A DNA stretch of 64,000 nucleotides, taken from the NCBI GenBank assembly GCA_965203445.1, contig OZ241883.1, positions 736,001 through 800,000 on the forward strand, given 5' to 3'. This stretch comes from Candidatus Oxydemutator sp. Lineage in GTDB: Bacteria; Pseudomonadota; Gammaproteobacteria; Poriferisulfidales; Oxydemutatoraceae. This document shows positions 27,249 through 64,000 of the stretch, piece by piece. How positions within the stretch are numbered: the stretch's first letter is position 1; every line of letters begins with the position of its first letter. Both the position numbers and the translations under genes were made by a program. The notes below the pieces were generated by a model. The model worked only from the letters and a program-made list of their open reading frames with translations. It did no database searches and had not been told where the DNA came from.

Positions 27249-30200
27249 CTACGGCGCCGAAAACGTCCTGCACCGGCCCTGGTTCCCCGGCGCGAGCACG
27301 AAACACCGATCGGCGGACAACACCTCGCCGTCGAAGTCCAAATCCGCGTCCACCGCGTAATTGCCGGCCGCGTCCGGGTCGCGGTACGCGCCCGCGCCCA
27401 ACGACCTCAGGTTGTGCACGCGGATCAATACCTCGTCCCGCTCGTCTATCACGCCGTTGCGATCCACGTCGCCCGCGAACATCGCATACGTGCCTTGCCC
27501 GACTTCGGCCTGCCCGTCCCCGTGCGACTGCGCGAACCGGAAGTCCACGCAGTAGCCGGCGGTGCAGCCCTCGCCGCCGGGCGCCAATGCATTCGCGGAT
27601 ATTACCGACAGGTGGTTGCGGTGGTGCACCAACACGTACACCTGCCCGCCTTCGAGCAGCTCCGTCTCAAAACGCACGCCGTCCAGGAACAGCGCATCCG
27701 CCGCCGTCGCCGCCTCCTCGTTGATCCCTGCGATACGACCGTCGCGCAACAGCAAGCCCGCGGCGCGACCGCCCGTCGTCGGCGCCGATGCCAACGCCGC
27801 GTCCGCGGTCGCGCCGGTGCGCACCTCCACCAGCACCCAGTCCACTATCGTCGAGGTTACGCCGCTCAATCCAGACCCCTCCCCCACGTGCGGCACCGTC
27901 GTCGCCGCCGGGTAGTTCCACGGAGCCACGTTATAGGGTTGTCGCCTCGGCAAAACGTCTATCAATCCGGTGCTCATGCCACGCGAACCCCCATACGCAC
28001 CCTGCAAATACACGCGCGCGTCCACCACCACCAACCTGTCGTCGTTGGCTATCGTTACGACCGTCGAAAACCGGGTCGTGGCAACCGCAACGCTATCGCC
28101 CCGAGTACGCAACAGCCGCAACACCAGCTCCTCCTCCGGTTCTATGACGTAGTCGTCCAACAGGCGCAACCGTATCACCGCCCTCGTCGTGCCCGCGGCC
28201 ATCACCACCATACCGCCATCCTCGTCTCTATAATCGGCACCCGCCGTCGCCGTGCCGCTTACCTGATAATGGATGGTTACGTCCTCGCCGATAACCGTAG
28301 TAGCAGGCGACAAAGCCACCTCGAACCGAAGCTCCACGTCGCTCTCCGTCGTGCGTATATAGGCCGGCGTCGCCAGCATCACCACCGGTACCGACGGCTG
28401 CCTCTGGCGCTGCACGCGGATACTCGTGGTGTTGCCGCCGGGATAACGTATGCTTACACCGCGCAACGCCGGATAATCGAAACGACTCCCGAAATCCCAT
28501 GGCGCGTCGTCGTTCAACGTCACGACACCCATGGCCGTGCTCGCCACGCCGTCCACGTCCAACTGATCCCAACCGGCGTAGATGCCCGCGGCCGCCGTCG
28601 GCGCGCGCAACTCGGTGGACGTCCTGGACGACCGATCCGGCGACGGCTCGTTCTCGCCACAGCACGAAGTCTGCCCGCTGCGCGCGTGGTCAAAGTAGCT
28701 CGCCTGAACGTCGTATTCGGCCGCGTCGGCTTCATCACGCCCCCCCACCAGGCCGCCCCGGTAGATGCTTGCGCCGTGCGCTCCCCCCGTCACCCTGCCT
28801 ATCGAGTAACTGGCGCTCACCACCGAACCTATGGCGGCCCGGCCTATCAGACCACCCGAACGGAGCGCATCCGCATGCACTCGCACGGCCGCGTAACTCG
28901 CCAATACCGTGCCATGATTGGCACCCGCCAGACCGCCCGCCGCAAAAACACCCTTTACGCTGCCGCCTGTCACGTAACACGCCGCCACTTTGCCTTCGTT
29001 ACGACCCACCAACGCCCCCGTGTGCATACTGCCGCCACCCACCTCCACGTTCACGTCCCACAAGCCCACGTTGCGGATCGTGCCGGCGCTGCTTACGGCA
29101 CCGAACAAGCCCGCGTTATCCAACCGTAGCGACGACTGGATACGCAAATTGCTTACGACGTGGCCGTTGCCTTCAAAAACGGCGGTGTAATACTTTATCG
29201 GACGCCCGCCCCCCAACGGCGTCCAGTTCCGCACGCTCGACAAGTCCACGTCGTTCGACAACTCGTAGCCTTTGCAACCGCCCGCACAAGTCTCGGCCTC
29301 GTCAAAAAACGGAAAGGCCTCGTCGTAGGCAACCACGTCTCCATCAGCCACGCCACGCAAACCCGCGCCGCCCAAGTCATAGCGGATCGCCGCCAACTGC
29401 GACGTCGTCGCAACGTTTATCAGATTGTTGCCGTCGGGATCGTAATCCTTCCCGTTCGGGGCGATGACGCTGACGACCGCGGAACTGGCGACGTTCAAGC
29501 GCCGGCGCAACGCGCTCGACGTCAAAAATCCGCTCACTCTCACTCGAAACGTCTCTCTCCTCTCCGACGTCCCGTCATCCGCTATCCCTACCCGGAAAAC
29601 CACGCTGTTGGTATTGGTGAGGAACAGCAACCCATCCCTGTCCCCGTCAAAATCCAACGCCTCGGCGTGGCCGTCGCCGGCACCGGTCAGCTCCACGGAC
29701 CAACTCATCACCAACTGGCTGACGCTGGGAACATCCAATTCTACGATGTACTCAACGTCCTGCCCCTCCGTTACCAGGTCGGCGCCCCGCTGCGACAACG
29801 TCAGCAACACCGGCGGCTGTAGCCGCCGTTGCACGCCGATACCGGCGGTGTTGCCGGTGGGATAACGCGCGCTCACGCCGCGCAACATTGGATAATCCAA
29901 ACCACTCCCGAAATCCCACGGCGCGTCGTCGTTCAAGTCGCCGTCATTGCTCTGATCCACGCCGTCCACGTCCAACTGGTCCCAACCGGCGTAGATGGTG
30001 CCCACGGCCGTCGTCGGCGCGCGCAACTGGACGACCGTCCTCGACGTATGCGCGTCATTCGACGGCATGTTCCGGCCACAGCACGAACTCTGCCCGCTGC
30101 GCTCGCGGTTATAGTAGCTCGCCTGAACGTCATATTCATCGGCGTCGGTCTGGTTACGCTGCCCCACCAGGCCACCTCTTCTGGCGCCTCCACTTTGCAC

Positions 30201-33200
30201 CCTACCTATCGAGTAACTGGCACTCACCACCGAACCTGCAATGGCTTCGCCTATCAGACCACCCGAATTGTTCATGGCCGCGTGCACTTCCACGTCCGCG
30301 TAACTCCCTATTACCACGCCACGATTGACACCCGCCAGTGCGCCCGCCGACCAACCACCCGTCACGCCGCCGCCCGCCACCCAGCACGCCGCCACCCTGC
30401 CGTCGTTGCGGCCCACCAACGCACTCGTAAAAACACTGCCGTCCCCCACGCGCACGCGCGCGTTCCTTACACCCACGTTGCGGATCCTGCCGCCGACGCC
30501 CACGGCGCCGAACAATGCCGCGTAATCCAAGTCTGCCGACGTGTCAATACGCAAATTGCTTATGACGTGGCCGTTGCCCTCGAAAACAGCGGTGTAATAC
30601 GCCAACGGACTCCCGCCCCCTATCGGGATCCAGTCATCGCCTGACAAATCCAGGTCGTTCACCAACTCGTAGCCTTTGCAGCCGCCCGGACACCCGCTTT
30701 CGTCGAAAAACGGAAACGCTTCTTCGTAAGCAACCATGTCTCCATCGGCCACGCCGCGCAAGCCCATACCGCCCAAGTCATAGCGGATCGCCTTCAACTG
30801 CGTCGTCGTCATAACGTCTATCAGATTGTTGTCGTCGGGGTCATAATCGTTCCCATGCGATCTGATAACGCTGACGACCGCGGAACTGGCGGCGCTCAAA
30901 CGCACGTTGTCCGGGCCTTGCAAATTGCTTACCCTTACTCGATAACTCTCTCTCCGTTCCGACGCCCCGTCCTCCGTTACCCGTATGCTGAAAACCGCGC
31001 TGTCGGTGTTGACGAGAGTTATCGTCCCTCGCGTCGCACCGGAAAAATCGGCCGCCTCGGCGTGGCGGGCACCGACACCGACAAGCTCCACCGACCAACT
31101 CACCGTCACCGCGGCTCTGCTGCGAAAATCCAATTCCACCGCGTACGTTACCGTCGAGCCTTCCGCTATCGGATCGTCGCCTCGCTGCGACAGCGTCACC
31201 AATACCGGCGGCTGCAAGCGCCGCTGCACGCCGACATTCGTGCTGTTGCCGGTGGGATAACGCGCGCTCACGCCGCGCAACACCGGATAATCCGAACTAC
31301 TCCCGAAATCCCACGGCGCGTCGTTGAAGTCGCCATCGCCGTCCACGTCCAACTGGTCCCAACCGGCGTAGATGGTGCCCACGGCCGTCGTCGGCGCGCG
31401 CAACTCGGTGGACGTCTTCGACGAACGATCCGGCGACGGCACGTTCGTGCCGCAGCACGCAATCTGCGCGGTGCGCCCGCGGTCAAAGTAGCTCGACTGA
31501 ATCTTGACGGATGATCCGCGCGACCCTATCAGACCACCGTCCTGGTTCCCGGTCTCTTCCACTCGCCCGATGCTGTAACTGGCGCTCACTACGCTCATGT
31601 CGCCGGCACCGCCTATCAAGCCGCCTTTCGCTCGATTCGGGGGAACGGTCGCGGCGCTCACCGACACGTTGGTATAACTCGCCACCACCCTCCCCTTTGC
31701 CCCGGTCAACGCGCCTACCAGGCCGCCCACTCCCCAGCCGCCCGTCACCGACCCGCGCACCACGTAACTCGACGCTATCCTGCCATAGGCAACCCCCGCC
31801 AACGCGCCCGTCTGTATGCTGGTTTCATCCACCGTCACGTTCACGTCCACCAGACCCACGTTGCGGACGACACTGGCGGCGCCCAGGCCGCGGAACAAAC
31901 CCACAAAGTCCCATCGGTTACTCCCGCCGACAATGCGCATGTTCTCGATAACGTGGCCGTTGCCTTCGAACGTCCCGTGGTAACGGTTCTCATCAGGCAG
32001 CAAATTGCCCGGCAACTGATTGCGACCCCCGCCCCCTATCGGGTCCCAGTTGCCGCCCGACAAGTCCAGGTCGTTCAGCAATTCGTAGCCCTTGCACCTG
32101 CCCGGACACGTCTCGAACTCGTCAAAAAGTGGAAATGCGGCTTCGTAGTCATCCACGTCTCCATCGGCCACGCCGCGCAAACCCATCCCGCCCAGATCAT
32201 AGCCAATCGCCTCCAACTGCGACCTTGTCGTTACCTCTATCAGATTGTCGTTGTCGAGGTCGTAATCGGTTCCATGCGAGGCGATAGCACTGACGACCGC
32301 GGAATCGGCGGCACTCAAACGCACGCCGTCCGGGGCTTGCAAACTGCTTAACCGCACCCGAAACGCCTCTCTCGACTCCGACGTCCCGTCCTCCGCTATC
32401 CGGATCCCGAAAACCGCGCTGGCGGTGTCGACGAGAGTTACCGTCCCTCGCGTCGCCCCGACGAAATCGGCCGCCTCGGCGTGGCGGGCACCGACACCGA
32501 CAAGCTCCACCGACCAACTCACCGTCACCGCGGCTCTGCTGCGAAAATCCAATTCCACCGCGTACGTTACCGTCGAGCCTTCCGCTATCGGATCGTCGCC
32601 TCGCTGCGACAACACTACCAATACCGGCGGCTGCAAGCGCCGCTGCACGCCGACATTCGTGCTGTTGCCGGTGGGATAACGCGCGCTCACGCCGCGCAAC
32701 ACCGGATAATCCGAACTACTCCCGAAATCCCACGGCGCGTCGTTGAAGTCGCCATCGCCGTCCAGATCCAACTGGTCCCAACCGGCGTAGATGGTGCCCA
32801 CGGCCGTCGTCGGCGCGCGCAACTCGGTGGACGTCTTCGACGAACGATCCGGCGACGGCACGTTCGTGCCGCAGCACGCAATCTGCGCGGTGCGCCCGCG
32901 GTCAAAGTAGCTCGACTGAATCTTGACGGATGATCCGCGCGACCCTATCAGACCACCGTCCTGGTTCCCGGTCTCTTCCACTCGCCCGATGCTGTAACTG
33001 GCGCTCACTACGCTCATGTCGCCGGCACCGCCTATCAAGCCGCCTTTCGCTCGATTCGGGGGAACGGTCGCGGCGCTCACCGACACGTTGGTATAACTCG
33101 CCACCACCCTCCCCTTTGCCCCGGTCAACGCGCCTACCAGGCCGCCCACTCCCCAGCCGCCCGTCACCGACCCGCGCACCACGTAACTCGACGCTATCCT

Positions 33201-36200
33201 GCCATAGGCAACCCCCGCCAACGCACCCGTCTGTATGCTGGTTTCATCCACCGTCACGTTCACGTCCACCAGACCCACGTTGCGGACGACACTGGCGGCG
33301 CCCAGGCCGCGGAACAAACCCACAAAGTCCCATCGGTTACTCCCGCCGACAATGCGCATGTTCTCGATAACGTGGCCGTGACCCTCGAACGTCCCGTGGT
33401 AACGGTTCTCATCAGGCAGCAAATTGCCCGGCAACTGATTGCGACCCCCGCCCCCTATCGGGTCCCAGTTGCCGCCCGACAAGTCCAGGTCGTTCACCAA
33501 CTCGTAGCCTTTGCAGCCGCCCGGACACCCGCTTTCGTCGAAAAACGGAAACGCTTCGTCGTAAGCAACCATGTCTCCATCGGCCACGCCGCGCAAGCCC
33601 ATACCGCCCAAGTCATAGCCAATCGCCTCCAACTGCGACCTTGTCGTTACCTCTATCAGATTGTCGTTGTCGAGGTCGTAATCGGTTCCATGCGATCTGA
33701 TAACGCTGACGACCGCGGAACTGGCGGCGCTCAAACGCACGTTGTCCGGCGCCTGCAATTCGCTCAACCGCACTCGAAACATCTCTCTCCGTTCCGGCGT
33801 CCCGTCCTCCGTTACCCGTATACTGAAAACCGCGCTGTCGGTGTTGACGAGGGTTATCGTCCCTCGCGTCGCACCGGAAAAATCGGCCGCCTCGGCGTGG
33901 CGGGCACCGACACCGACAAGCTCCACCGACCAACTCACCGTCACCGCGGCTCTGCTGCGAAAATCCAATTCCACCGCGTACGTTACCGTCGAGCCTTCCG
34001 CTATCGGATCGTCGCCTCGCTGCGACAGCGTCACCAATACCGGCGGCTGCAAGCGCCGCTGCACGCCGACATTCGTGCTGTTGCCGGTGGGATAACGCGC
34101 GCTCACGCCGCGCAGCACCGGATAATCCGAACTACTCCCGAAATCCCACGGCGCGTCGTTGAAGTCGCCATCGCCGTCCAGATCCAACTGGTCCCAACCG
34201 GCGTAGATGGTGCCCACGGCCGTCGTCGGCGCGCGCAACTCGGTGGACGTCTTCGACGAACGATCCGGCGACGGCACGTTCGTGCCGCAGCACGAACTCA
34301 GCCTGGCGCGCACGCGATCAAAGTAGCTTGCCTGAATCTCGGCCGACGTGGCGCGAGCACCCGCCAGACCGCCGACCTCGGAACCGCTCCTTCGCAGCAT
34401 CGCCACCGTGTAACTGGCGCTCACTATGCTCATGTCGGAAAGCCTGCCTGCCAGACCGCCCAACGGCCGATTCAGGCTATCCACCAATACGTCGGCATAA
34501 CTGGCAATGATGATTCCACTCCCGTCCAATGTGCCCACCAGACCGCCTATGCCCCAACCGCCGTGCACCTCGCCGCCCACCACGTAACTCGACGCTATCC
34601 TGCCGGAGGCAACCCCGGCCAACGCGCCCGTCTGTATGCTGGTTTCATCCACCGTCACGCTCACGTCCACCAGACCCACGTTGCGGACGACACTGGCGGC
34701 GCCCAGGCCGCGGAACAAACCCACAAAGTCCCATCGGTTACTCCCGCCGACAATGCGCATGTTCTCGATAACGTAGCCGTGACCCTCGAACGTCCCGTTG
34801 TAACGGTTCTCATCAGGCAGCAAATCGCCCGGCAACTGATTGCGACCCCCGCCCCCTATCGGGACCCAGTCCTCGCCCGACAAGTCCAAATCATTCGACA
34901 ACTCATAGCCTTTGCAGCCGCCCGGACACCCGTTTTCCTCGAAGCCCGGAAAGGCTTCTTCGTAAGCAGCCGCGTCGTCCCCATCGGCCACGCCACGCAA
35001 ACCCATCCCGCCCAGATCATAGCCAATCGCCTCCAACTGCGACCTTGTCGTTACCTCTATCAGATTGTCGTTGTCGAGGTCGTAATCGGTTCCATGCGAG
35101 GCGATAGCACTGACGACCGCGGAACTGGCGGCGCTCAAACGCACGTTGTCCGGGCCTTGCAAATTGCTTACCCTTACTCGATAACTCTCTCTCCGTTCCG
35201 ACGCCCCGTCCTCCGTTACCCGTATGCTGAAAACCGCGCTGTCGGTGTTGACGAGAGTTATCGTCCCTCGCGTCGCACCGGAAAAATCGGCCGCCTCGGC
35301 GTGGCGGGCACCGACACCGACAAGCTCCACCGACCAACTCACCGTCACCGCGGCTCTGCTGCGAAAATCCAGTTCCACCGCGTACGTTACCGTCGAGCCT
35401 TCCGCTATCGGATCGTCGCCTCGCTGCGACAACACTACCAATACCGGCGGCTGCAAGCGCCGCTGCACGCCGACATTCGTGCTGTTGCCGGTGGGATAAC
35501 GCGCGCTCACGCCGCGCAACACCGGATAATCCGAACTACTCCCGAAATCCCACGGCGCGTCGTTGAAGTCGCCATCGCCGTCCACGTCCAACTGGTCCCA
35601 ACCAGCGTAGATGGTGCCCACGGCCGTCGTCGGCGCGCGCAACTCGGTGGACGTCTTCGACGAACGATCCGGCGACGGCACGTTCGTGCCGCAGCACGCA
35701 ATCTGCGCGGTGCGCCCGCGGTCAAAGTAGCTCGACTGAATCTTGACGGATGATCCGCGCGACCCTATCAGACCACCGTCCTGGTTCCCGGTCTCTTCCA
35801 CTCGCCCGATGCTGTAACTGGCGCTCACTACGCTCATGTCGCCGGCACCGCCTATCAAGCCGCCTTTCGCTCGATTCGGGGGAACGGTCGCGGCGCTCAC
35901 CGACACGTTGGTATAACTCGCCACCACCCTCCCCTTTGCCCCGGTCAACGCGCCTACCAGGCCGCCCACTCCCCAGCCGCCCGTCACCGACCCGCGCACC
36001 ACGTAACTCGACGCTATCCTGCCATAGGCAACCCCCGCCAACGCGCCCGTCTGTATGCTGGTTTCATCCACCGTCACGTTCACGTCCACCAGACCCACGT
36101 TGCGGACGACACTGGCGGCGCCCAGGCCGCGGAACAAACCCACAAAGTCCCATCGGTTACTCCCGCCGACAATGCGCATGTTCTCGATAACGTGGCCGTT

Positions 36201-43875: not shown

Positions 43876-44837
43876 ATGCGCGTCCTGGGCCTTGAGACCT
43901 CGTGCGACGAGACCGGCGTCGGGCTGGTGGACTCCGACGCAGGCGTCGTCGCCGAGGCGCTCTTCAGTCAGATCGAGACGCACCGACCGCACGGCGGCGT
44001 CGTGCCGGAGTTGGCGGCGCGCGACCACGTGCATAAGCTGCTGCCGCTGGTGCGCGAGGTGCTCGGCGACGACCTGCTGCGGCGTGTGGACGCGGTGGCC
44101 TACACCGCCGGCCCCGGCCTTGCCGGCGCGCTGCTGACTGGCGCCGTATTCGGACACGGCCTGGCGTGGGCGCTGGGCAAGCCGGCGCTCGGCGTGCACC
44201 ACATGGAGGCGCACATGCTCGCGTGCATGCTGCCGCAGGCGCCGCCGCTGCCGTACCTCGCGCTGCTGGTGTCGGGCGGTCACACCCAGCTGGTCGCGGC
44301 CCACGGGCTGGGCCGCTACGAACTGCTCGGAGACACCTTGGACGATGCGGTCGGCGAGGCCTTCGACAAGTCGCGCGCACCTTGGGCCTGGGTTATCCCG
44401 GCGGCCCGGAGATAGAGCGGCTGGCGCGGCGCGGGCGCGCCGGGCGTTTTGTGTTCCCGCGTCCGATGGCAAACCATCCGGGCCTCGATTTCAGTTTCAG
44501 CGGCCTGAAGACACACGCGCTGCACACCCTGCGCGGACTGCAACGCGACAACGACGACGGCGGCGACGGGCAAGACCGCGCCGACCTGGCGCGCGCCTTC
44601 GAGACCGCGGCCGTCGGCACGCTGGTGCAGCGCTGCCGGCGCGCGCTCGAACAAACCGGCTTCAGCCGCCTGGTCGCCGTCGGCGGCGTCGCCGCCAACG
44701 AACACCTACGCACCGAACTCGCCAAGTTCGACGCGCGCGGCACCGAAGTGATCTATCCAAAGACGAAGTGGTGCACCGACAACGGCGTCATGATCGCCAA
44801 CGCCGGAATGCTGCGCCTGCAAGTCAAGGGGGGTTGA
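43876..44837 (+). pseudogene. tsaD: tRNA t6A threonylcarbamoyltransferase TsaD with a 1-nt frameshift near 44370 (real lesion or sequencing error)
   Basis: [48 protein letters not shown] in one frame; [35 protein letters not shown] in another. Confidence 0.9.
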
Positions 44838-44867
44838 TCAGGGAGGGGAGACGTGCTTCAGGGGCGC

Positions 44868-44939
44868 GGCGCGCAACCCTCGGCACTGCTCATCTCCTGC
44901 GGCCGCCGCGAAAAAGGCACCGGGGCAACCTCGGCAATG
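44868..44939 (+). pseudogene. pyrE: pyrE relic, copy 2
   Basis: GAQPSALLISCGRREKGTGATSAM. Confidence 0.55.
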
Positions 44940-56900: not shown

Positions 56901-57224
56901 CAACTGATTGCGCCCCCCGCCCCCTATCGGGTTCCAGTCCCTGCCCGACAGGTCCACGTCGTTCAGCAATTCATAACCGTTGCAGGTGCCGGGACAACCC
57001 ATGCCCGGCACGGCGTCGGGAAACGCGGTGCTATAAGCGGCGGGGGCGGCGTTGCCGGCACCCGTCAGATCGTGGGTGATGGCCTGCAACTGCGTCGAAG
57101 TCCTGACGTCTATCAGATTGTTGTCATTGACGTCGTAGTCGACGCTGCCCGTCGGGGTTTGGGCCGCGACGCCGGCGGCAAAAGTCATCAGCAGCAAGCA
57201 CGCGGCAATTCTCATTGTCCACAC
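44952..57224 (-). CDS. Giant secreted modular protein 2: 8 modules plus the same C-terminal domain; probable true start at 57283 is out of frame across a poly-C tract
   Basis: 4090-aa ORF; MRIAACLLLMTFAAGVAA-Q signal peptide; same architecture as gene 1. Confidence 0.85.
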   Translation of the reverse strand: MWTMRIAACLLLMTFAAGVAAQTPTGSVDYDVNDNNLIDVRTSTQLQAITHDLTGAGNAAPAAYSTAFPDAVPGMGCPGTCNGYELLNDVDLSGRDWNPIGGGGRNQLPDGLLPADRYNAVFEGNGHVIENMRIDDRVNGVSTRWDLVGLFRGLGEAGVIRNVGLVNVDVRVPSNSVLTGALAGIVYGRIASSYVAGGEVHGGWVIGALAGELATGTVVASYANVLVDSPQRPLGGLVGKASGMSIVSASYTLATLKRSGVEVGGLVGARDTSAEIQSSYFDRVRSEQSSCCGTNAPTADNTLRTSSQLRIPTTATGTIYAGWDRLDLDGDGDFNDAPWDFGSDLDHPVLRGMSARYPTGNTTSTGVQRRLQPPILVALSQRGGDLVAEGSTVTYAVELDFPIRYEVTMSWSVELVGAGHAEAADFVGATRGRVVLVNTDSAVFRVGIKEDETSEERETYRVRLSSLQGPDNVRLNAASSAVVSVIASNGKDYDLDDNNLIEVATTSQLSAIRYDLDGDGVPDGEAYATTYSAAFPFSDEFGTCPGSCKGYELSNDIDLSDEDWNPIGGGVRNRLPGGLTDENRYHGTFEGNGHVIENMRIDDRVNGVSTRWDFVGLFRGLGVAGVVRNVGLVNVNVSVHPGSVQTGALAGVAYGRIVSSYVAGGAVHGGWGIGGLVGELGGSGIIIASYVDDVLVDTQNRPLGGLVGEASGMSIVSASYTLATLKRSGSEIGGLIGKRATSAEIQSSYFDRVRSEQSSCCGTNPLSPDDTPRTSSDLYAPTTTAGTIYAGWDQLNVDRVDQRDDGDLNDDAPWDFGNRFQYPVLRGVSARYPAGNTTSIGVQRRVQPPVAVALSQRGGSPIAEGSTVTYAVEWNADDEVIGAAVVTMSWSVELVGAGHAEAADFVGATRGRVVLAGTDSAVFGVGIAEDETLELREAFRVRLSSLQAPDGVRLDAASSAVDSVIARNGNDYDLDDNNLIDVMTTSQLSAIRYDLDGDGVPDREAYATTYSAAFPFSDEFGTCPGDCKGYELSNDMDLSGEDWTPIGRGSSRYNAVFEGNGHVVRNMKFTRAVGSDRYDDVGLFGILGAGGKIRSVGIENVSVNAPESVGVGALAGTAYGRIAASYAVGGVVTGSWAVGGLVGEIFGGTVIASYSDVAVHGRGQRAGGLIGSVSGGVGVGQSVVSASYTIGVPTGGGGHRGGLTGFNDSSFLELQSSYFDRRRAGLSACCGTSMPSSNSAPARMSAELRGPTSAMGIYAGWGQLNVDGVDQLDDDDLNDDAPWDFGSSSEYPVLRGMSARYPTGNTTSTGVQRRLQPPVLATLSQRGDVLATEDSTATYAVELDVPSVGAVTMNWSVELTGAGTGHAAAADFSGATSGEVVLVDTDGVVFRIGIARDDGLERLERFRVRLSDLRGPDNFRLSVAASAVVSFIAPQGRDYDDNDDGLIEVATTSQLAAITHDLRGRGLAGVDYGGVAAYEAVFPYFDVEETCASGCKGYELLNDLDLSGLAWQPIGGGGLDPRVGGRLPEEHLYNAVFEGNGHVISNMEAVLSSKPWHFVGLFRGLGAGGVIRNVGLANVYVFVHRSSIQTGALAGVNYGGKMAACWVTGRGHRDGDVSGGWGAGGLVSHNEGTIIASYTDVDVRVAASPAGGLAGYNASGGKIIASYSLDSVGQPPVYWSHVARNNGGLVGINAAASTAIESSYFDTDSSGLSSGGDSVSATTVRTSRELRSPVAAEGIYAAWSGLDVDDTSSTVMGVLTLNDDNPWDFGTNLDYPVLRGVSARYPKGNTTGIRVQRPVADVLVTLSQGAERTFEGDAAEYTVALGAYGPAVTMTWSVELTGVGEGHAEASDFDGATSGQVVLAGTDSAVFTITIEDGDGPEGRETFRVRLSEPRGLDGLRLSAASSAVVSVIARSGGTDYDPDGDNLIEVATTSQLSAIRYDLGGMGLLGVADGDDADAYKEAFPFFNESSTCPGTCAGYELSNDLDLSSVGNWTPLGGGSPLEYYTAVFEGNGHVISNLRIESPSLNNAGLFSAVGVGGRIRNVGLRDVFVSVGAGVHTGALVGRNEGRVAACYVLGGSVDGQAGRVKGVWGAGGLAGANGGAVIASYADVGVHADAHTAGGLIGEAIAGSVVSASYSVGMVSGGRYGGSTVRGGLLGRRNESDADKYDVQASYYDRGRSGQTSCCGGQTPPSSDAQTSRTSLQLRAPTSAVGIYAGWDKLDVDGVDQLDDDDLNDDAPWDFGSGFDYPVLRGVSARFPGGNAAGIGVQRRLQPQVLLTLSQRGADLLTEGQVVEYTVELDGRVSQLVMNWSVEYTGAGDGHAEASDFDGDRDGVLVLTNTSSAVFQVRIADDVRPELRETFRVRVSRFLTSGALRQRLNVASSAVVSVIASHGKNYDADDNGLIDVMTTSQLSAIRYDLRGMGLGGVDGEDVAAVAAYEGAFPFFDEIGACAGGCKGYELLNDVDLSGLAWQPIGGGGLDPRVDGRLPEKYLYKAVFEGNGHVISNMEVNAPNVVWHFVGLFRGLGASGVIRNVGLMGAKVAVHMNSISTGGLAGVNYGGKVAACYVVGEDDQGDVIGSWTVGGLVGGNEGTIIASYANAYVRGAASPTGGLVGYNAPGGKIIASYSLGIVGLARVVWPHATRNDGGLVGQNDAASTAIEASYYDRDSGGLSSGGTNVSATAVRTSRELRSPVAAEGIYAAWSGLNVDDTTGTVMGVLTLNDDNPWDFGTNLDYPVLRGVSERYPDGNTTGIRAQRLAAGVFVTLSQGAGRKSEGEEAEYAVTLSTRGAGAVTMNWSVELTGVGEGHAEALDFDGATSGQVVLVDTASAVFQVGIKEDETPERRETFRVRVSDLQGPDNVRLNPAGSAVVSVIAPNGRDYDPDGNNLINVATTSQLAAIRYDLGGAGLRGVADGDVVAYDEAFPFFDKVKTCAGGCKGYELSNDVDLSSVGNWTPLGGGNPIRYYTAVFEGNGHVVSNLRIQSSLRLDNAGLFGAVSGVGTIRNMGLRDVNVEVGGGSMHTGALVGRNEGKVAACYVTGGSVKGVSATGGLAGANHGTVLASYAAVGVHADGLRSGGLIGRAAAGSVVSASYSIGRVTGGARGGSTYRGGLVGGRDEADAAEYDVQASYFDRARSGQSSCCGENEPSPDRSSRTSIELRAPTAAVGIYAGWDQLDVDGVASTAMGAVTLNDDAPWDFGSGLDYPVLRGVSARYPTGNTTSVGVQRRLQPPVSLTLSQRGADLVTEGQDVEYIVELDVPSVIQLVMNWSVEYTGAGEGHAEALDFDGDRDGFLFLTNTRSAVFQVSIADDGTPERRETFRVKVSGFVASSALRRRLNVASSAVVSVIAPNGKDYDPDGNNLINVATTSQLAAIRYDLGGAGLRGVADGDVVAYDEAFPFFDEAETCAGGCKGYELSNDVDLSSVGNWTPLGGGRPIKYYTAVFEGNGHVVSNLRIQSSLRLDNAGLFGAVSGVGTIRNVGLRDVNVEVGGGSMHTGALVGRNEGKVAACYVTGGSVEGVFAAGGLAGANYGAVLASYAAVGVHADGLRSGGLIGRAAAGSVVSASYSIGRVTGGAHGASTYRGGLVGGRDEADAAEYDVQASYFDRARSGQSSCCGENEPSPDRSSRTSIELRAPTAAVGIYAGWNQLDVDGVASTAMGVVTLNDDAPWDFGSRLDYPVLRGVSARYPGGNTTSIRVQRQRQPLLPVVMLATPAHIRTTESDVELRFEVALSPATTVISGSVTIHYQVSGTATAGADYRDEGRGMVVMAAGTTRAVIRLRLLDDDAIEPEEELVLRLLRVQGDNVAVATTRFSTVVTIANDDRLVVVVNARVYLQGAYGGSRGMSTGLIDVLPRRQPYNVAPWNYSAATTVPHVGEGSGLSGVTSTIVDWVLVELRTGATADAALASAPTPGGRAAGLLLRDGRIAGINEEAATAADALFLDGVRFETELLEGGQVYVSVHHRNHLSVISANALAPGGEGCNAGYCVDFRFAQSHGDGQAEVGQGTYAMFAGDVDRNGVIDERDEVLIRVHNLRSLTSLGAGAYRDPDAAGNYAVDADLDFDGEVLSADRCFVLAPGTQGRCRTFSAP

Positions 57225-57262: not shown

Positions 57263-57289
57263 TAGGCGGATGTCGCGCACCATGCGCTG

Positions 57290-57560: not shown

Positions 57561-57572
57561 CCGACCCGTTGC

Positions 57573-60500
57573 CTACGGCGCCGAAAACGTCCTGCACCGG
57601 CCCTGGGTCCCCGGCGCGAGCACGAAACACCGATCAGCGGACAACACCTCGCCGTCGAAGTCCAAATCCGCGTCCACCGCGTAATTGCCGGCCGCGTCCG
57701 GGTCGCGGTACGCGCCCGCGCCCAACGACGTCAACGACCTCAGGTTGTGCACGCGGATCAATACCTCGTCCCGCTCGTCTACCACGCCGTTGCGATCCAC
57801 GTCGCCCGCGACCATCGCATACGTGCCTTGCCCGACTTCGGCCTGCCGACCCCCGTGCGACTGCGCGAACCGGAAGTCCACGCAGTAGCCGGCGTTACAT
57901 CCCTCGCCGCCGGGCGCCGATGCATTCGCGGATATTACCGACAGGTGGTTGCGGTGGTGCACCAACACGTACACTTCCTGACCTTCGGGCAGCTCCGTCT
58001 CAAAATGCACGCCGTTCAAGAACAGCGTATCCGCCGCCGTCGCCGCCTCCTCGTTGATCCCTGCGATACGACCGTCGCGCAACAGCAAACCCGCGGCGCG
58101 ACCGCCCGTCGTCGGCGCCGATGCCAACGCCGCGTCCGCGGTCGCGCCGGTGCGCACCTCCACCAGCACCCAGTCCACTATCGTCGAGGTTACGCCGCTC
58201 AATCCAGACCCCTCCCCCACGTGCGGCACCGTCGTCGCCGCCGGGTAGTTCCACGGAGCCACGTTATAGGGTTGTCGCCTCGGCAAAACGTCTATCAATC
58301 CGGTGCTCATGCCACGCGAACCCCCATACGCACCCTGCAAATACACGTGCGCGTCCACCACCAACCTGTCGTCGTTGGCTATCGTTACGACCGTCGAAAA
58401 CCGGGTCGTGGCAACCGCAACGCTATCGCCCCGAGTACGCAACAGCCGCAACACCAGCTCCTCCTCCGGTTCTATGACGTAGTCGTCCAACAGGCGCAAC
58501 CGTATCACCGCCCTCGTCGTGCCCACGGCCATCACCACCATACCGCCATCCTCGTCTCTATAATCGGCACCCGCCGTCGCCGTGCCGCTTACCTGATAAT
58601 GGATGGTTACGTCCTCGCCGATAACCGCAGTAGCAGGCGACAAAGCCACCTCGAACCGAAGCTCCACGTCGCTCTCCGTCGTGCGTATATAGGCCGGCGT
58701 CGCCAGCATCACCACCGGTACCGACGGCTGCCTCTGGCGCTGCACGCGGATACTCGTGGTGTTGCCGCCGGGATAACGTATGCTTACACCGCGCAACGCC
58801 GGATAATCGAAACGACTCCCGAAATCCCACGGCGCGTCGTCATTCAACGTCACGACACCCATGGCCGTGCTCGCCACGCCGTCCACGTCCAACTGGTTCC
58901 AACCGGCGTAGATGCCCACGGCCGCCGTCGGCGCGCGCAACTCGATGGACGTCCTGGACGACCGATCCGGCGACGGCTCGTTCTCGCCACAACACGAACT
59001 CTGCCCGCTGCGCTCGTGGTCAAAGTAGCTCGCCTGAACGTCGTATTCGGCCGCGTCGGCTTCATCACGCCCCCCCACCAGGCCGCCCCGGTAGGTGCTT
59101 GCGCCGTGCGCTCCCCCCGTCACCCTGCCTATCGAGTAACTGGCGCTCACCACCGAACCTATGGCGGCCCGGCCTATCAGACCACCCGAGCGGAGCCCAT
59201 CCGCGTGCACTCCCACGGCCGCGTAACTCGCCAATACCGTGCCATGATTGGCACCCGCCAGACCGCCCGTCGCAGAAACACCCTTTACGCTGCCGCCTGT
59301 CACGTAACACGCCGCCACCTTGCCTTCGTTACGACCCACCAACGCCCCCGTATGCATACTGCCGCCACCCACCTCCACGCTCACGTCCCGCAAGCCCACG
59401 TTGCGGATCGTGCCGACGCCGCTTACGGCGCCGAACAAGCCCGCGTTATCCAACCGTAGCGACGACTGGATACGCAAGTTGCTTACGACGTGGCCGTTGC
59501 CTTCAAAAACGGCGGTGTAATACTTTATCGGATTCCCGCCCCCCAACGGCGTCCAGTTCCGCACGCTCGACAAGTCCACGTCGTTCGACAACTCGTAGCC
59601 TTTGCAACCGCCCGCGCAAGTCTCGGCCTCGTCAAAAAACGGAAAGGCCTCGTCGTAGGCAACCACGTCTCCATCAGCCACGCCACGCAAACCCGCGCCG
59701 CCCAAGTCATAGCGGATCGCCGCCAACTGCGACGTCGTCGCAACGTTTATCAGATTGTTGCCGTCGGGATCGTAATCCTTCCCGTTCGGGGCGATGACGC
59801 TGACGACCGCGGAACTGGCGACGTTCAAGCGCTGGCGCAACGCGCTCGACGTCAAAAATCCGCTCACTCTCACTCGAAACGTCTCTCTCCTCTCCGACGT
59901 CCCGTCATCCGCTATCCCTACCCGGAAAACCACGCTGTTGGTATTGGTGAGGAACAGCAACCCATCCCTGTCCCCGTCAAAATCCAACGCCTCGGCGTGG
60001 CCGTCGCCGGCACCGGTGTACTCCACGGACCAACTCATCGCCAACTGGCTGACGCTGGGAACATCCAATTCTACGATGTACTCAACGTCCTGCCCCTCCG
60101 TTACCAGGTCGGCGCCCCGCTGCGACAACGTCAGCGACACCGGCGGCTGCAAGCGCCGTTGCACGCCGGCACTCGTGGTGTTGCCGGTGGGATAACGCGC
60201 GCTCACGCCGCGCAACATCGGATAATCCAAACCACTCCCGAAATCCCACGGCGCGTCGTCGTTCAACGTCCGCACGCCCATGACCGTGCCCGTCGTGTCG
60301 TCCACGTTCAGCTTGTCCCAACCGGCGTATATGCCCATCGCCGCCGTCGGGGCGCGCAACTGGACCGAGGTCCTCGACGTCTGCGCGTCCGACGACGGCA
60401 TGCGCTGGCCACAGCACGATGTCTGCCCGCTGCGCCCGCGGTCATAGTAGCTTGCCTGAACGTCGTATACGGCGTCGTCGGTTTCGTTACGCTGCCCCAC

Positions 60501-63500
60501 CAGGCCGCCCCTTCTGGGACCTCCATCTTGTGAACCCCCGGTCACCTTGCCTATCGAGTAACTGGCACTCACCACCGAACCTGCAACGGCTTCGCCTATC
60601 AGACCACCCGAGTTGTTCCTGGCCGCGTGCACTGCCACGTTCGCGTAACTCGCTATTACCACGCCATGATTGACACCCACCAGACCACCCGCCGACCAAC
60701 CACCCGTTACGCCGCCGCCCGCCACCCAACACGCCGCCACCCTGCCGTCGTTGCGACCCACCAACGCACTCGTAAAAACACTGTCGTCCCCCACGTTCAC
60801 GCGCGCGTTCCTTACGCCCACGTTGCGGATCGTGCCGCCGACGCCCACGGCGCTGAACAATGCCGCGTAATTCAAGTTCGACATCGAAACGATACTCATG
60901 CTGCTTATCACAAAGCCGTTGCCTTCAAAAACCGCGGTGTAATACGCCAACGGACTCCCGCCCCCTATCGGGATCCAGTCATCGCCTGACAAATCCAGGT
61001 CGTTCACCAACTCGTAGCCTTTGCAGCCGCCCGGACACCCGCTTTCGTCGAAAAACGGAAACGCTTCTTCGTAAGCAACCACGTCGTCTCCATCAGCCAC
61101 GCCGCGCAAGCCCATACCGCCCAAGTCATAGCGGATCGCCTTCAACTGCGTCGTCGTCATAACGTCTATCAGATTGTTGTCGTCGGGGTCATAATCGTTC
61201 CCATTCGAGGCGATGACGCTGACGACCGCGGAACTGGCGGCGCTCAGACGCAGCCCGTCCAAACCCCTCGGCTCGCTCAAGCGCACGCGGAACGTCTCTC
61301 TCCCTTCCGATCCGTCGCCATCCTCGATAGCTATCCTGAAAACCGCGCTGTCGGTGCCCGCCAGAACCACCTGCCCGCGCGTCGCCGCGGAAAAGTCGTC
61401 CGCATCGGCGTGGCCCATGCCGACGCCGGTGAACTCCACCGACCAGGTCATCGTCACCGCGGGACCGTAAGCGCCCAATGTCACCGCGTACTCCGCCTCC
61501 GCGCCCTCCAATTTGTTTCCGGCGCCCTGCGACAACGTCACCAATACATTGGCCACCGGGCGCTGCGCCCGGACGCCGGTGGTGTTGCCCTTGGGATAAC
61601 GCGCGCTTACGCCGCGCAACGCCGGATAATCCACATTCGTGCCGAAATCCCACGGGTTGTCGTCGTCCAGCGTCGAAACGCCCATCACCGTGCTCGACGT
61701 ATCGTCCACGTTCAGACCGCTCCAGGCCGCATAAATGCCCTCGGCCGCGATCGGCGAACGCAACGCCCGGCTCGTCTGTACCGCCGACGACGACACGTCC
61801 ACACCGCCCGACGATAAGCCGCTGCGTTGTCTGTCAAAGTAACTGCTCTCTATCGCGCCATCGTTGTGGCCCACCAGACCGCCCATGTCCCTGTCTCGCA
61901 CGCCGCGAACTCGAACATTCTCCAGTTTCACATTTCTCAATGAATAACTCGCTATGATCTTCGCGCCGGGGGCGTTATAACCCACCAGACCACCGGCACC
62001 GGCCGCACCCGTCCCCACCGTCACGTCGGTGTAGCTGGCAATGATCGTTCCCCCATTGAAGGCCACCAGACCACCCACACCCCAACCGCCGATCATATCT
62101 CCATCGGGGTGCCCTCTGCCCGTCACCCAACACGCCGCCACCTTGCCGCCGTAGTTGACCCCCACCAATCCGGCCGTCTGTATACTGCTTGGATGCAAGG
62201 CCACGCGCACGTCCGCCAGGCCCACGTTGCGGATGACACCGCCTACGCCCAAGCCCTGGAACAAGGCCACAAATTGCCAAGGCCTCCCCCCACTGACTAC
62301 TCTCATATTGCTGATAACGTGGCCGTTGCCTTCGAATACTCCTTTGTAAAGGTATTCCTCGGGCAGCCGTTGACCGGGGCCGCGGGCATCGCGTAGCCCG
62401 CTCCCTATCGGTTGCCAAGTCAGGCCCGACAAGTCCAGGTCGTTCAACAATTCGTAGCCGGTGCAGCCGCGCGTACACGTCTCCCCCACGTCAAAAAACG
62501 GATACGCGGCTTCGTACGCGACTACGTCTCCATAATCCACGCCGGCCAGACCTCTGCCTCTCAAATCATGGGTTATCGCCGCCAACTGCGACGTCGTCGC
62601 GACCTCTATCAGACCATCGTCATTTTCGTCGTAGTCCCTACCCTGCGGTGCGATGAAGCTGACGACCGCGGAAGCGGCGACGCTCAAACGAAAGTTGTCC
62701 GCGCCCTGCAAATCAGAAAGCCGCACCCGAAAACGCTCCAGCCGTTCCAACCCGTCGTCCTCTTCGATGGTTATCCTGAAAACCGCGCTGTCGGTATTGA
62801 CCAGAACCACCTCCCCGCTCGTCGCACCGGAAAAATCGGCCGCGGCGGCGTGGCCGGTGCCGGCACCGGTCAGCTCCACCGACCAATTCATCGTAACCGC
62901 GCCGACACTGGGAACGTCAAGTTCCACCGCATACGTCGCCGTCGAACCTTCCGTTGCCAGAACGTCGCCTCGCTGCGATAGCGTCGCCAATACCGGCGGC
63001 TGCAAGCGCCGCTGCACGCCGGCACTCGTGCTGTTGCCGGTGGGATAACGCGCGCTCATGCCGCGCAGCAACGGATATTCCGAACTATTCCCGAAATCCC
63101 ACGGCGCGTCGTTGAAGTCGCCGTCGGCGTCCACATCCAACTTGTCCCAACCGGCGTAGATGCCCATAGCCGACGTCGGGCCGCGCAACTCGGCGGACGT
63201 CCTGGCGGGCGCACTGTTCGACGACGGCATGCTCGTACCGCAGCACGCACTCAACCCGGCGCGCCGGCGGTCAAAGTAGCTTGACTGAAGCTCCAAAAAG
63301 GAAGAATCATTAAACCCTGTCAAACCGCCTCTATGACCTCCCCCGCCGGTCGGAACCCCTATCGTGTAGCTGGCGCTCACTACGGACTGGCCCACGCCCA
63401 CGCCGCCGCTCACGCTGCCTATCAAACCGCCCGCTCTTTGTCCCCGGCCATGCACCGCCACGTCGCTGTAACTGGCAATCACGGTTCCCCCGAAGATCTC

Positions 63501-64000
63501 GCCCACCAGACCGCCTACCGCCCAGGAACCGGTCACCACCCCGCCGACCGCGTAACTCGCCGCTATCCTGCCGTAGGCAGTCCCCGCCAACGCGCCTACC
63601 CCCACGCTTTCAGGCGCATTCACGCTCACGTTCTCCAGACCTACCGAACGGATTTTGCCGCCGGCGCCCAAGATGCCGAACAAGCCCACGTCGTCATAAC
63701 GATCACTGCCGACGGCTCGTGTGAACTTCATGTTCCTGACGACGTGGCCGTTGCCTTCGAATACGGCGTTGTAGCGGGACGACCCCCTGCCTATCGGGAT
63801 CCAGTCATCGCCTGACAAATCCAGGTCGTTCACCAACTCGTAGCCTTTGCAGCCGCCCGGACACCCACTTTCGTCAAAAGACGGAAATGCCTCGTCGTAA
63901 GCGACCATGTCTCCATCAGCCACGCCGCGCAAACCCATACCGCCCAAGTCATAGCGGATCGCCGACAACTGCGACGTCGTCATAACGTCTATCAGATTGT
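57573..64000 (-). CDS. Giant modular protein 3, 5' part outside the window: at least 4 modules plus the same C-terminal domain
   Basis: Frame stays open to the window edge (..NLIDVMTTSQL); ends CRTFSAP like genes 1 and 2. Confidence 0.85.
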   Translation of the reverse strand, partial: NLIDVMTTSQLSAIRYDLGGMGLRGVADGDMVAYDEAFPSFDESGCPGGCKGYELVNDLDLSGDDWIPIGRGSSRYNAVFEGNGHVVRNMKFTRAVGSDRYDDVGLFGILGAGGKIRSVGLENVSVNAPESVGVGALAGTAYGRIAASYAVGGVVTGSWAVGGLVGEIFGGTVIASYSDVAVHGRGQRAGGLIGSVSGGVGVGQSVVSASYTIGVPTGGGGHRGGLTGFNDSSFLELQSSYFDRRRAGLSACCGTSMPSSNSAPARTSAELRGPTSAMGIYAGWDKLDVDADGDFNDAPWDFGNSSEYPLLRGMSARYPTGNSTSAGVQRRLQPPVLATLSQRGDVLATEGSTATYAVELDVPSVGAVTMNWSVELTGAGTGHAAAADFSGATSGEVVLVNTDSAVFRITIEEDDGLERLERFRVRLSDLQGADNFRLSVAASAVVSFIAPQGRDYDENDDGLIEVATTSQLAAITHDLRGRGLAGVDYGDVVAYEAAYPFFDVGETCTRGCTGYELLNDLDLSGLTWQPIGSGLRDARGPGQRLPEEYLYKGVFEGNGHVISNMRVVSGGRPWQFVALFQGLGVGGVIRNVGLADVRVALHPSSIQTAGLVGVNYGGKVAACWVTGRGHPDGDMIGGWGVGGLVAFNGGTIIASYTDVTVGTGAAGAGGLVGYNAPGAKIIASYSLRNVKLENVRVRGVRDRDMGGLVGHNDGAIESSYFDRQRSGLSSGGVDVSSSAVQTSRALRSPIAAEGIYAAWSGLNVDDTSSTVMGVSTLDDDNPWDFGTNVDYPALRGVSARYPKGNTTGVRAQRPVANVLVTLSQGAGNKLEGAEAEYAVTLGAYGPAVTMTWSVEFTGVGMGHADADDFSAATRGQVVLAGTDSAVFRIAIEDGDGSEGRETFRVRLSEPRGLDGLRLSAASSAVVSVIASNGNDYDPDDNNLIDVMTTTQLKAIRYDLGGMGLRGVADGDDVVAYEEAFPFFDESGCPGGCKGYELVNDLDLSGDDWIPIGGGSPLAYYTAVFEGNGFVISSMSIVSMSNLNYAALFSAVGVGGTIRNVGVRNARVNVGDDSVFTSALVGRNDGRVAACWVAGGGVTGGWSAGGLVGVNHGVVIASYANVAVHAARNNSGGLIGEAVAGSVVSASYSIGKVTGGSQDGGPRRGGLVGQRNETDDAVYDVQASYYDRGRSGQTSCCGQRMPSSDAQTSRTSVQLRAPTAAMGIYAGWDKLNVDDTTGTVMGVRTLNDDAPWDFGSGLDYPMLRGVSARYPTGNTTSAGVQRRLQPPVSLTLSQRGADLVTEGQDVEYIVELDVPSVSQLAMSWSVEYTGAGDGHAEALDFDGDRDGLLFLTNTNSVVFRVGIADDGTSERRETFRVRVSGFLTSSALRQRLNVASSAVVSVIAPNGKDYDPDGNNLINVATTSQLAAIRYDLGGAGLRGVADGDVVAYDEAFPFFDEAETCAGGCKGYELSNDVDLSSVRNWTPLGGGNPIKYYTAVFEGNGHVVSNLRIQSSLRLDNAGLFGAVSGVGTIRNVGLRDVSVEVGGGSMHTGALVGRNEGKVAACYVTGGSVKGVSATGGLAGANHGTVLASYAAVGVHADGLRSGGLIGRAAIGSVVSASYSIGRVTGGAHGASTYRGGLVGGRDEADAAEYDVQASYFDHERSGQSSCCGENEPSPDRSSRTSIELRAPTAAVGIYAGWNQLDVDGVASTAMGVVTLNDDAPWDFGSRFDYPALRGVSIRYPGGNTTSIRVQRQRQPSVPVVMLATPAYIRTTESDVELRFEVALSPATAVIGEDVTIHYQVSGTATAGADYRDEDGGMVVMAVGTTRAVIRLRLLDDYVIEPEEELVLRLLRTRGDSVAVATTRFSTVVTIANDDRLVVDAHVYLQGAYGGSRGMSTGLIDVLPRRQPYNVAPWNYPAATTVPHVGEGSGLSGVTSTIVDWVLVEVRTGATADAALASAPTTGGRAAGLLLRDGRIAGINEEAATAADTLFLNGVHFETELPEGQEVYVLVHHRNHLSVISANASAPGGEGCNAGYCVDFRFAQSHGGRQAEVGQGTYAMVAGDVDRNGVVDERDEVLIRVHNLRSLTSLGAGAYRDPDAAGNYAVDADLDFDGEVLSADRCFVLAPGTQGRCRTFSAP

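Follow-up and report, generated by a model that had tools for sequence, protein, structure and literature searches.

Three giant open frames lie as tandem paralogues on the minus strand of a 64,000-nt stretch of the Candidatus Oxydemutator sp. genome (contig OZ241883.1, positions 736,001 to 800,000; hereafter the window, in whose coordinates all positions are given unless stated otherwise). They are composed of modules that are mosaics of one another, and we consider it highly probable that these genes encode giant exported proteins diversified by homologous recombination among their modules. An initial annotation of the window had counted 23 modules, and all 23/23 were recovered when modules were delimited by two anchors, a [DN]xLIxV start motif and W.P(I/L)G (11 + 8 + 4 in genes 1 to 3, the last counted within the window). 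Full modules measure 458-484 aa (~470 aa, ~1.4 kb). Each gene closes with a shorter module of 348 aa and, after it, a C-terminal region of 379-383 aa.

27249..43670, minus strand: gene 1, a 5473-aa open frame with 11 modules; probable start Met at 43550 (or 43568)
43494..43550, minus strand: putative Sec-type signal peptide of gene 1 (MRIAAC...AAGAAAQ), read off the sequence without a predictor
44952..57224, minus strand: gene 2, 4090 aa, 8 modules; putative signal peptide at ~57159-57215
57573..64000, minus strand: 3' part of gene 3, with 4 modules; the frame runs to 63998 in the window and is open at the right end

The entire gene 3 is a 4409-aa open frame of 9 modules, five of which lie beyond the window, and it extends ~6.8 kb past the window end. 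The coding strand of the giant genes is G-rich, and their G + C content is 61-65%, compared with 63-72% in the housekeeping genes on the left. Tandem Repeats Finder reported no repeats in the window, because its longest period is 500 and the repeated unit is ~1.4 kb.

Mosaic structure of the modules

The typing of modules by the loop after W.P(I/L)G, as given in the initial annotation, was reproduced exactly in all three genes: A, B, C, six D (module 7 being deviant), A and E in gene 1; D-like, D-like, C, F, A/E-like, F, E and E in gene 2; and C, F, A and E in the window part of gene 3. Types thus vary between genes, but the description of the modules as shuffled overstated the disorder, since one collinear backbone (D.. 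C F .. A/E .. E), modified by duplications of one or two modules, underlies genes 2 and 3 as well as a paralogue at 2.06 Mb.

Pairwise nucleotide identity between modules (numbered below by gene and module, e.g., g1m10) ranges from 62 to 98%, and the nearest neighbour of a module switches along its length when 120-nt windows are compared. For example, g1m10 tracks g3m3 at 98-100% over the first 80 and the last 160 codons, and g1m1 at 88-100% between them; g2m3 and g3m1 are 100% identical in most 120-nt core windows and have different heads. The head patch ...MVAY.EAFP.FDESGCPGGCKGY does precede D cores (g1m6 and g1m8), an A core (g1m10) and a C core (g3m1), as had been noted earlier, and a close variant of it stands ahead of the A core of g3m3. 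Likewise, the reported switch of g1m7 to a gene-2-like half was located between 34295 and 34577, where informative sites favour g2m2 over g1m4 by 64:11, against 22:176 outside (Fisher p 1e-31). Sharp breakpoints on both sides were observed in all 8/8 parent/child triplets examined (Fisher p 2e-19 to 2e-61), and these p-values remain far under any threshold after correction for the possible segment pairs (<1e5).

Maximum-likelihood trees were built on four partitions of the alignment (head, core, link and Calx), and in approximately unbiased (AU) tests each partition rejected the three other trees (delta log-likelihood 69-774, p-AU <= 0.0023). The possibility that one tree explains all sites is therefore decisively rejected. 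The pairwise homoplasy index (PHI) test, in our own implementation with 1000 site permutations, gave 0/1000 for the 23 modules, for the 20 full modules, for the 16 non-redundant modules and for the six D modules, in agreement with the recombination proposed initially. The same result (0/1000) was obtained in four other arrays of the genome, which indicates that exchange is a property of the whole module family. In 20 recombination-free simulations on the core tree, the largest deficit was 0.010, compared with 0.136 in the data. The mixing of RPIK, NPIR and NPIK with VFAA and VSAT that had been described for the E modules fared less well within the window: only three combinations occur there (RPIK+VFAA, NPIR+VSAT and NPIK+VSAT), with no four-gamete violation, and PHI on the four E modules of the window alone was not significant (68/1000). 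When two E copies from 2.06 Mb were included, making a six-E-module set, the test became significant (0/1000).

Synonymous divergence (dS) shifts approximately 10-fold at the breakpoints. For head, core and Calx part, respectively, dS is 0.919, 0.070 and 0.622 between g1m10 and g1m1, and the opposite pattern (0.021, 0.224 and 0.039) is seen between g1m10 and g3m3. Under a copying model, 73 donor switches are needed over 42 modules of five genes, and the breakpoints fall all along the module with weak clusters at residues 58-75 (11/73) and 270-340 (24/73). The individual modules and tracts are as follows.

42084..43457, minus strand: g1m1, loop type A; head g2m1-like, core g1m10-like
42634..43239, minus strand: tract of g1m1 following g1m10; informative sites g1m10:g2m1 211:6 inside, 34:132 outside (Fisher p 2e-61)
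40695..42083, minus strand: g1m2, type B; core the most divergent of all, at 53-72% to the others
39321..40694, minus strand: g1m3, type C; head g1m2-like, core g2m3/g3m1-like, tail g1m8-like
40022..40490, minus strand: core tract of g1m3 following g2m3; informative sites for:against 132:17 inside, 33:162 outside (p 2e-43)
37902..39320, minus strand: g1m4, type D; the module used for structure prediction
36486..37901, minus strand: g1m5, type D
35070..36485, minus strand: g1m6, type D with MVAY...ESGCPGGC head
33666..35069, minus strand: g1m7, deviant D; own head type, gene-2-like core
34295..34577, minus strand: tract of g1m7 following g2m1/g2m2 at 82-91% nucleotide identity; no identical donor in the genome
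32250..33665, minus strand: g1m8, type D; last ~240 nt follow g1m3 (29/29 informative sites)
30831..32249, minus strand: g1m9, type D; 665-nt exact tract in common with g1m4
29430..30830, minus strand: g1m10, type A; flanks g3m3-like, core g1m1-like
29938..30569, minus strand: core tract of g1m10 following g1m1; informative sites for:against 71:21 inside, 5:209 outside (p 6e-44)
28386..29429, minus strand: g1m11, type E; beta-helix part only, without the module-type Calx-beta domain
27249..28385, minus strand: C-terminal region of gene 1; Calx-beta, an unnamed domain and a dockerin-like Ca-loop pair
55734..57122, minus strand: g2m1, D-like
54297..55733, minus strand: g2m2, D-like
52896..54296, minus strand: g2m3, type C; 436-nt exact tract with g3m1, but head (54102-54238) follows g2m2
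51450..52895, minus strand: g2m4, type F
50016..51449, minus strand: g2m5, A/E-like; 14 differences from a copy 1.27 Mb away
48564..50015, minus strand: g2m6, type F; 556-nt exact tract with a copy at genome position 2.06 Mb
47145..48563, minus strand: g2m7, type E core; A-type (g3m3-like) tail at 47145-47645
46101..47144, minus strand: g2m8, type E; beta-helix part only
44952..46100, minus strand: C-terminal region of gene 2
62619..63998, minus strand: g3m1 (module 6 of the whole gene 3), type C; head (63798-63943) follows g1m10/g1m6, not g2m3
61179..62618, minus strand: g3m2, type F
59760..61178, minus strand: g3m3, type A
58716..59759, minus strand: g3m4, type E; beta-helix part only; query for database searches
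57573..58715, minus strand: C-terminal region of gene 3; Pfam Calx-beta at E 1.5e-7, Dockerin_1 at E 0.0068, below cut-off

Identity between the C-terminal region of gene 1 and its counterparts in genes 2 and 3 is 95-96%.

Recent exchange and comparison with an orthologous gene

The D array of gene 1 contains exact shared tracts of up to 665 nt. Genes 2 and 3 have such tracts of up to 436 nt in common, and gene 2 shares up to 556 nt exactly with the copy that lies 1.27 Mb away. This copy, at 2.06 Mb, is collinear with g2m5-8 and differs from them at 14-30 positions per module. In one of its modules the first 395 codons (~1.18 kb) have been overwritten by the neighbouring module with three mismatches, the F-type tail being retained. 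In addition, the gene at 2.23 Mb is an internal four-module duplication, and the five closest genes contain 11, 8, 9, 6 and 8 modules.

A 4183-aa orthologue of gene 1 (P0158) was found on a different public contig from a separate assembly. Its modules 1-3 share 94, 98 and 95% amino acid identity with g1m1-3, and its next six modules are of type D, as in gene 1. These D modules, which are 76-93% alike between the two genes (amino acids), are not positional orthologues: positional pairs are only 80-90% identical, and the best matches lie off the diagonal. Within the genome, the D modules of gene 1 are 93-97% alike (amino acids), except for g1m7. With the Cys-loop patch used to type heads (H1-H3) and the GG.V.GG patch to type cores (K1, K2), the following arrays are obtained.

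D array of this genome, in order: H1K1, H1K1, H2K1, H3K2, H2K1, H1K1
D array of P0158, in order: H1K2, H3K1, H3K2, H2K1, H3K1, H2K1

As H1K1, H1K2, H3K1 and H3K2 are all present across the two genomes, heads and cores were reassorted around or after the split of the two lineages. Because P0158 also has the A-type core of g1m1 and the odd core of g1m7, these two combinations are old. The earlier description of the exchange as ongoing is therefore supported in part, by the D arrays, which differ although their flanks are 94-98% identical, but not by the combinations in g1m1 and g1m7. The inference of gene conversion and unequal crossover within and between genes is well supported, on the basis of the AU incongruence, the sharp breakpoints, the dS shifts, the differences in module number and the near-identical tandem copies. 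Taken together, incongruent trees, low-dS tracts and paralogues that are closer within the genome than positional orthologues between genomes are the marks of concerted evolution.

Distribution of diversity and selection

The initial annotation placed the diversity mainly in loops. Substitutions do not support this, the column entropies being 0.95 bits for predicted strands, 1.13 for helices and 1.05 for coil (Mann-Whitney p 0.21). Indels are found mostly outside strands (26/36 indel regions). Variable patches are found at g1m4 residues 41-50, 101-120, 201-220, 231-250 and 371-380, strands included. The ratio of non-synonymous to synonymous divergence (dN/dS) is high across the region (0.35-1.06), reaching 0.92-1.06 in the F-type cores, which fits either diversifying selection or relaxed constraint.

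A separate observation concerns the third codon positions of conserved residues, which are nearly invariant across 150 aligned modules in three blocks (g1m4 residues 3-27, 156-160 and 291-326). Mean third-position entropy in these blocks is 0.48, 0.12 and 0.34 bits, compared with ~0.9 elsewhere, despite a protein identity among modules of only ~47%. As the blocks were picked post hoc and the autocorrelation between neighbours is not significant (p 0.45), this pattern is a lead only.

Proposed mechanism and alternative explanations

The nucleotide identity between modules is high enough for ordinary homologous recombination, and no dedicated recombination machinery would be required. Gene conversion, a non-reciprocal exchange, has replaced heads, cores or tails with segments from the same gene, from the neighbouring genes or from copies 1.3 Mb away, and unequal crossing-over has duplicated, deleted and homogenised whole modules, as in the six-module D array of gene 1. 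The outcome would be a set of proteins in which putative ligand-binding beta-helices are combined in many ways and the cores show much non-synonymous change. A further proposal, that the modules form a standing combinatorial library in which head, core and tail cassettes are reassorted fast enough for closely related strains to differ in their binding heads, is possible, but we hold it to be doubtful.

Several points weigh against the recombination of modules in giant exported proteins, or restrict it. Our version of PHI is somewhat liberal, giving p <= 0.05 in 4/20 null simulations; the clustering of breakpoints at domain borders is weak (chi-square p 0.039, 12 bins), and breakpoint positions show no link to local nucleotide identity (p 0.18). 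Pfam cut-offs are passed in just 2/23 modules for GLUG and in 0/23 for Calx-beta, and the proposed function is drawn by analogy from fold and domains; the proteins show no anchor and, apart from the signal peptide, no secretion route. A number of mosaics are older than the split from P0158, so that exchange was not all recent, and the head/core pairings of P0158 could be misassembled if its contig is a short-read one. Misjoins inside the near-identical D array are possible because no listed public-run contig spans a junction, and two suspicious single-base frame changes (in tsaD in the window and in gene 3 module 1) may be assembly indels or gene decay.

The last of these points bear on the alternative that the mosaics are assembly chimeras, in which near-identical modules were misjoined by the assembler. 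The region is highly repetitive, modules of the D array share as many as 665 nt without a mismatch, and none of the listed public-run contigs (runs X1-X4, 100-500 nt within the repeats) spans a mosaic junction. However, a chimera would equal its parents on each side, which none of the main mosaics does: mismatches to the best donors number 5, 33 and 15 in the head, core and tail of g1m10 (plus 15 in a fourth, 19-codon segment), 20, 42 and 45 in the segments of g1m3, and 35, 7, 26, 9 and 2 in those of g1m7. For the core of g1m7, no possible donor in the genome exceeds 91% identity. The genome assembly consists of a single closed contig of 2.38 Mb, the open frame is intact in all 153 full modules, the same cassette types recur in the independent assembly of P0158, and g2m5-8 and the 2.06-Mb copy, each in unique surroundings of its own, have the same mosaics and are 98-99% identical. 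We thus regard misassembly as highly unlikely. Somewhat more credence, though still little, can be given to shuffling that was ancient only, with the mosaics dating from the origin of the family and the modules now diverging by mutation alone: the nearest donor of many tracts reaches just 82-95% identity, and P0158 shares the g1m1 and g1m7 combinations. Against this stand the tracts with dS 0.02-0.07 that adjoin flanks with dS 0.6-0.9, the exact inter-module tracts of 436-665 nt, the ~1.18-kb conversion tract with only 3 mismatches, and the D arrays of two related genomes that are not positionally orthologous while their flanking modules are 94-98% identical.

Selection without recombination, in which patches resemble one another through convergent or parallel amino acid change, would be in keeping with the high dN/dS of the region and of the F-type cores. 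Yet the likeness reaches synonymous sites, and dS and dN switch at the same breakpoints, so that convergence is ruled out as a source of the patches; nor can convergence yield runs of hundreds of identical nucleotides. We accordingly give this alternative practically no weight. Dedicated programmed variation, by a diversity-generating retroelement, a site-specific recombinase or silent donor cassettes of the pilE/pilS or MgPa kind, would suit the very large size of the family, the weak breakpoint clusters at residues 58-75 and 270-340 and the near-invariant third codon positions in three blocks. It is nevertheless extremely improbable: no match to the reverse transcriptase family PF00078 was found in the complete genome (0 matches, with 3/14 control genomes positive), all 153 full modules lie within long open frames of at least 13 genes rather than in promoterless fragments (open frames of at least 1200 aa searched), the breakpoints spread over the entire module, and the codon-block pattern carries the post hoc choice and the autocorrelation p of 0.45 given above. 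Homologous recombination among modules is thus the explanation we retain.

Two frame changes and the public sequencing runs are described here in their own right. Genes 1 and 2 are separated by the essential t6A gene tsaD (43876-44920, plus strand), whose coding sequence is split over two frames: residues 13-177 of a 348-aa homologue of the same genus match frame +1 and residues 173-322 match frame +3. The switch near 44370 may be a true lesion or may come from an indel in the assembly. Beyond the window, a frame change in the first module of gene 3 (near G000:C1 806,816, ~6.8 kb from the window end) cuts off the signal peptide and the first ~110 residues from the 4409-aa frame. Part of the stretch is present in 13/14 listed sequencing runs, and no RNA run is listed as a holder. 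The unique flank 26000-27121 is matched without a single difference by runs X1 and X2, which may derive from the source sample; X3 and X4 have no coverage of it. The base differences and joints in X1-X4 are most simply contigs of paralogous modules placed at 95% likeness, and nothing is drawn from them. Several runs labelled "sponge metagenome" hold small shares (0.07-0.14) of the stretch, from which we infer no habitat.

Genome-wide scale and distribution

The host genome is closed, with 2,378,814 bp. A hidden Markov model of the module, applied to long open frames, detected 153 full modules, which amount to 216,657 nt or 9.1% of the genome; the largest module gene encodes 16,130 aa with 33 modules. 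Module genes lie nearly all on the minus strand at 569-807 kb, with others at 2.06, 2.23 and 2.32-2.37 Mb. Open frames of at least 2500 aa make up 20.5% of the genome, including frames of 17,496 and 16,130 aa.

The module was not found in any of three same-genus genomes (0/3; 1.6-1.8 Mb, one of them a single contig, 98% complete). A synteny check in these genomes found only tsaD, and the porin was not found with the query used. In 9/18 genomes of the same family there are distant matches only (35-48% identity), in other giant frames. Six genomes of other genera of this family (G004, G005, G009, G012, G015 and G017; e.g., L020-L024) have tens of distant GLUG beta-helix matches, in recurrent frames of ~5,800-6,000 aa; the same-family frames look like a parallel expansion of a different giant-gene design. 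A contig search with the E module yielded no relative among 151 pattern matches. The IscS protein encoded in the window is 78-80% identical to proteins of Gammaproteobacteria, e.g., Thioalkalivibrio and Thiohalobacter.

Domain architecture and predicted function

AlphaFold2 on g1m4, with an alignment of 150 paralogous modules, gave a confident model (mean predicted local distance difference test, pLDDT, 90.3; predicted template modelling score, pTM, 0.84), compared with a pLDDT of 29.9 for single-sequence AlphaFold on g3m3. The model consists of a helical cap, then a beta-helix and then a C-terminal sandwich. The predicted beta-helix is right-handed, with a fold like that of PDB 3n6z and of the IgA1-protease N-terminal domain; Foldseek against PDB matched the Calx-beta part only, and the beta-helix match came from the wider VIA structure search. 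The sandwich has the Calx-beta fold, with profile similarity to NCX/CALX CBD1. Each ~470-aa bead is thus predicted to pair a GLUG-type right-handed beta-helix of ~270 aa, preceded by a short helical cap, with a Calx-beta sandwich, and each protein to consist of a Sec-type signal peptide, a string of such two-domain beads and a shared C-terminal region of ~380 aa.

At the sequence level, Pfam Glug matches 8/23 modules at E <= 0.1, of which only g2m6 (23.0 bits) and g3m2 (22.2 bits) exceed the 20.5-bit cut-off, and Pfam Calx-beta matches 4/23 at E <= 0.1, with 0/23 reaching 27 bits. The C-terminal region passes Pfam Calx-beta (31.9 bits), which is the only Pfam match on gene 3 at E <= 0.01. Over residues 1-330, BLASTP aligned the module with the GLUG-annotated protein P0010 at E 1e-34, and both P0010 and P0020 pass Pfam Glug. 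A phmmer search with g3m4 retrieved 22,543 cluster representatives at E <= 1e-3, and many of the 120 listed relatives carry PF07581 and/or PF05342. An NCBIfam search of the module gave no match.

Every module has four conserved Cys and a DxDxD-type junction motif, and each protein has a hydrophobic N-terminal signal and a D+E content of ~12%. The signal and the four conserved Cys per module suggest that the proteins of genes 1-3 may be exported. From the predicted fold, the signal and the Cys and DxDxD motifs, we infer that the proteins are probably exported, Ca2+-stiffened strings of 8-11 potential binding heads; by analogy, they are probably multi-headed surface or matrix fibres for attachment.

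Three other identities were considered and rejected. No zinc-binding HExxH is present in genes 1-3, and no match to the M26 catalytic domain was found in gene 3, the one gene searched for it, which excludes an M26 IgA1-specific metalloprotease. An RTX-type, type I-secreted LapA-like adhesin is excluded by the absence of the GGxGxDxUx motif from the proteins of genes 1-3 and by the hydrophobic N-terminal signal. Attachment of the cellulosome dockerin/cohesin type was set aside, as Dockerin_1 in the C-terminal region scores 17 bits against a cut-off of 22.9 (E 0.0068) and no PF00963 cohesin was found in the complete genome.

The last ~260 residues, after the final Calx-beta, match no Pfam family beyond this sub-threshold dockerin hit, and a language-model feature search with the C-terminal 259 aa retrieved only unnamed hypothetical-protein clusters, in one of which 15% of the members carry Dockerin_1. 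The next gene upstream of gene 3 (G000:C1:808150-816606, minus strand) encodes 2819 aa of Calx-beta-like repeats without beta-helix modules. As this protein ends in the same ~250-aa C-terminal domain, the tail is common to different giant-gene families.

Comparison with known systems

The closest relatives of the modules are the GLUG/Peptidase_M26_N proteins (PF07581 and PF05342; 3n6z is BACOVA_03286), with which they share sequence homology, and the N-terminal beta-helices of the M26 IgA1 proteases of S. pneumoniae (7jgj) and G. haemolysans (7uvk) are solved examples. In the S. pneumoniae enzyme, the beta-helix is non-catalytic, folds independently, binds the Fab of IgA1 as a protein ligand and gates the active site (PMC7695701); the likeness is to the beta-helix of the module, whereas the catalytic part of the protease has no counterpart in the proteins of genes 1-3 (no HExxH). 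A large-scale survey of fibrillar adhesins lists a Peptidase_M26_N cluster with 3N6Z as its top match, as a possible adhesive domain of ambiguous function (PMC9210967). Unlike the GLUG proteins, those of genes 1-3 contain 8-11 copies of the domain each, and other proteins of the genome as many as 33, every copy being followed by a Calx-beta domain, and most copies fall below the cut-off of the Pfam GLUG model (2/23 over).

The resemblance to giant adhesins of the LapA, SiiE and MpIBP types lies in very long exported proteins with tandem beta-sandwich repeats and an acidic composition (D+E ~12%), and the Calx-beta domain and DxDxD-type junctions of the module suggest a similar Ca2+ stiffening. 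Those adhesins are type I-secreted, with C-terminal RTX repeats and no Sec signal, and their repeated unit is a ~100-aa stalk domain, with one adhesive tip. In contrast, the proteins of genes 1-3 have an N-terminal signal peptide and no GGxGxD nonapeptide, and their repeated unit itself includes a putative binding domain. The repeat is a putative ligand-binding beta-helix, not a passive stalk, from a GLUG beta-helix family that is very large (the 22,543 cluster representatives above) and has almost no literature.

Segment exchange by homologous recombination is reported for surface and repeat genes such as yeast FLO (PMC3512402), Neisseria Opa (bioRxiv 10.64898/2026.02.02.703239), Mycoplasma genitalium MgPa (PMC2169797) and spider silk genes (PMC9779670). 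As in these systems, recombining paralogues here give chimeric alleles, changes in repeat number and homogenised arrays. The mechanism is thus not new, because exchange between repeats is a standard route for the diversification of surface proteins. Unlike in these systems, the exchanged unit is part of a two-domain 470-aa module, no silent cassettes were found (in open frames of at least 1200 aa) and there is no single expression site; the scale, 153 modules in 9.1% of a 2.38-Mb genome, also differs. What is notable here is this scale, the architecture and a little-studied putative binding domain as the repeated unit. If the variable cores bind different ligands, the modules would provide a natural series of related binding modules with a datable record of reassortment. 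If, moreover, they do serve as a combinatorial library, a bacterium with a small genome would be spending about one-tenth of its DNA on a recombination-driven recognition repertoire for host, partners or enemies, which would resemble antigenic and adhesin variation carried out without silent cassettes or dedicated enzymes.

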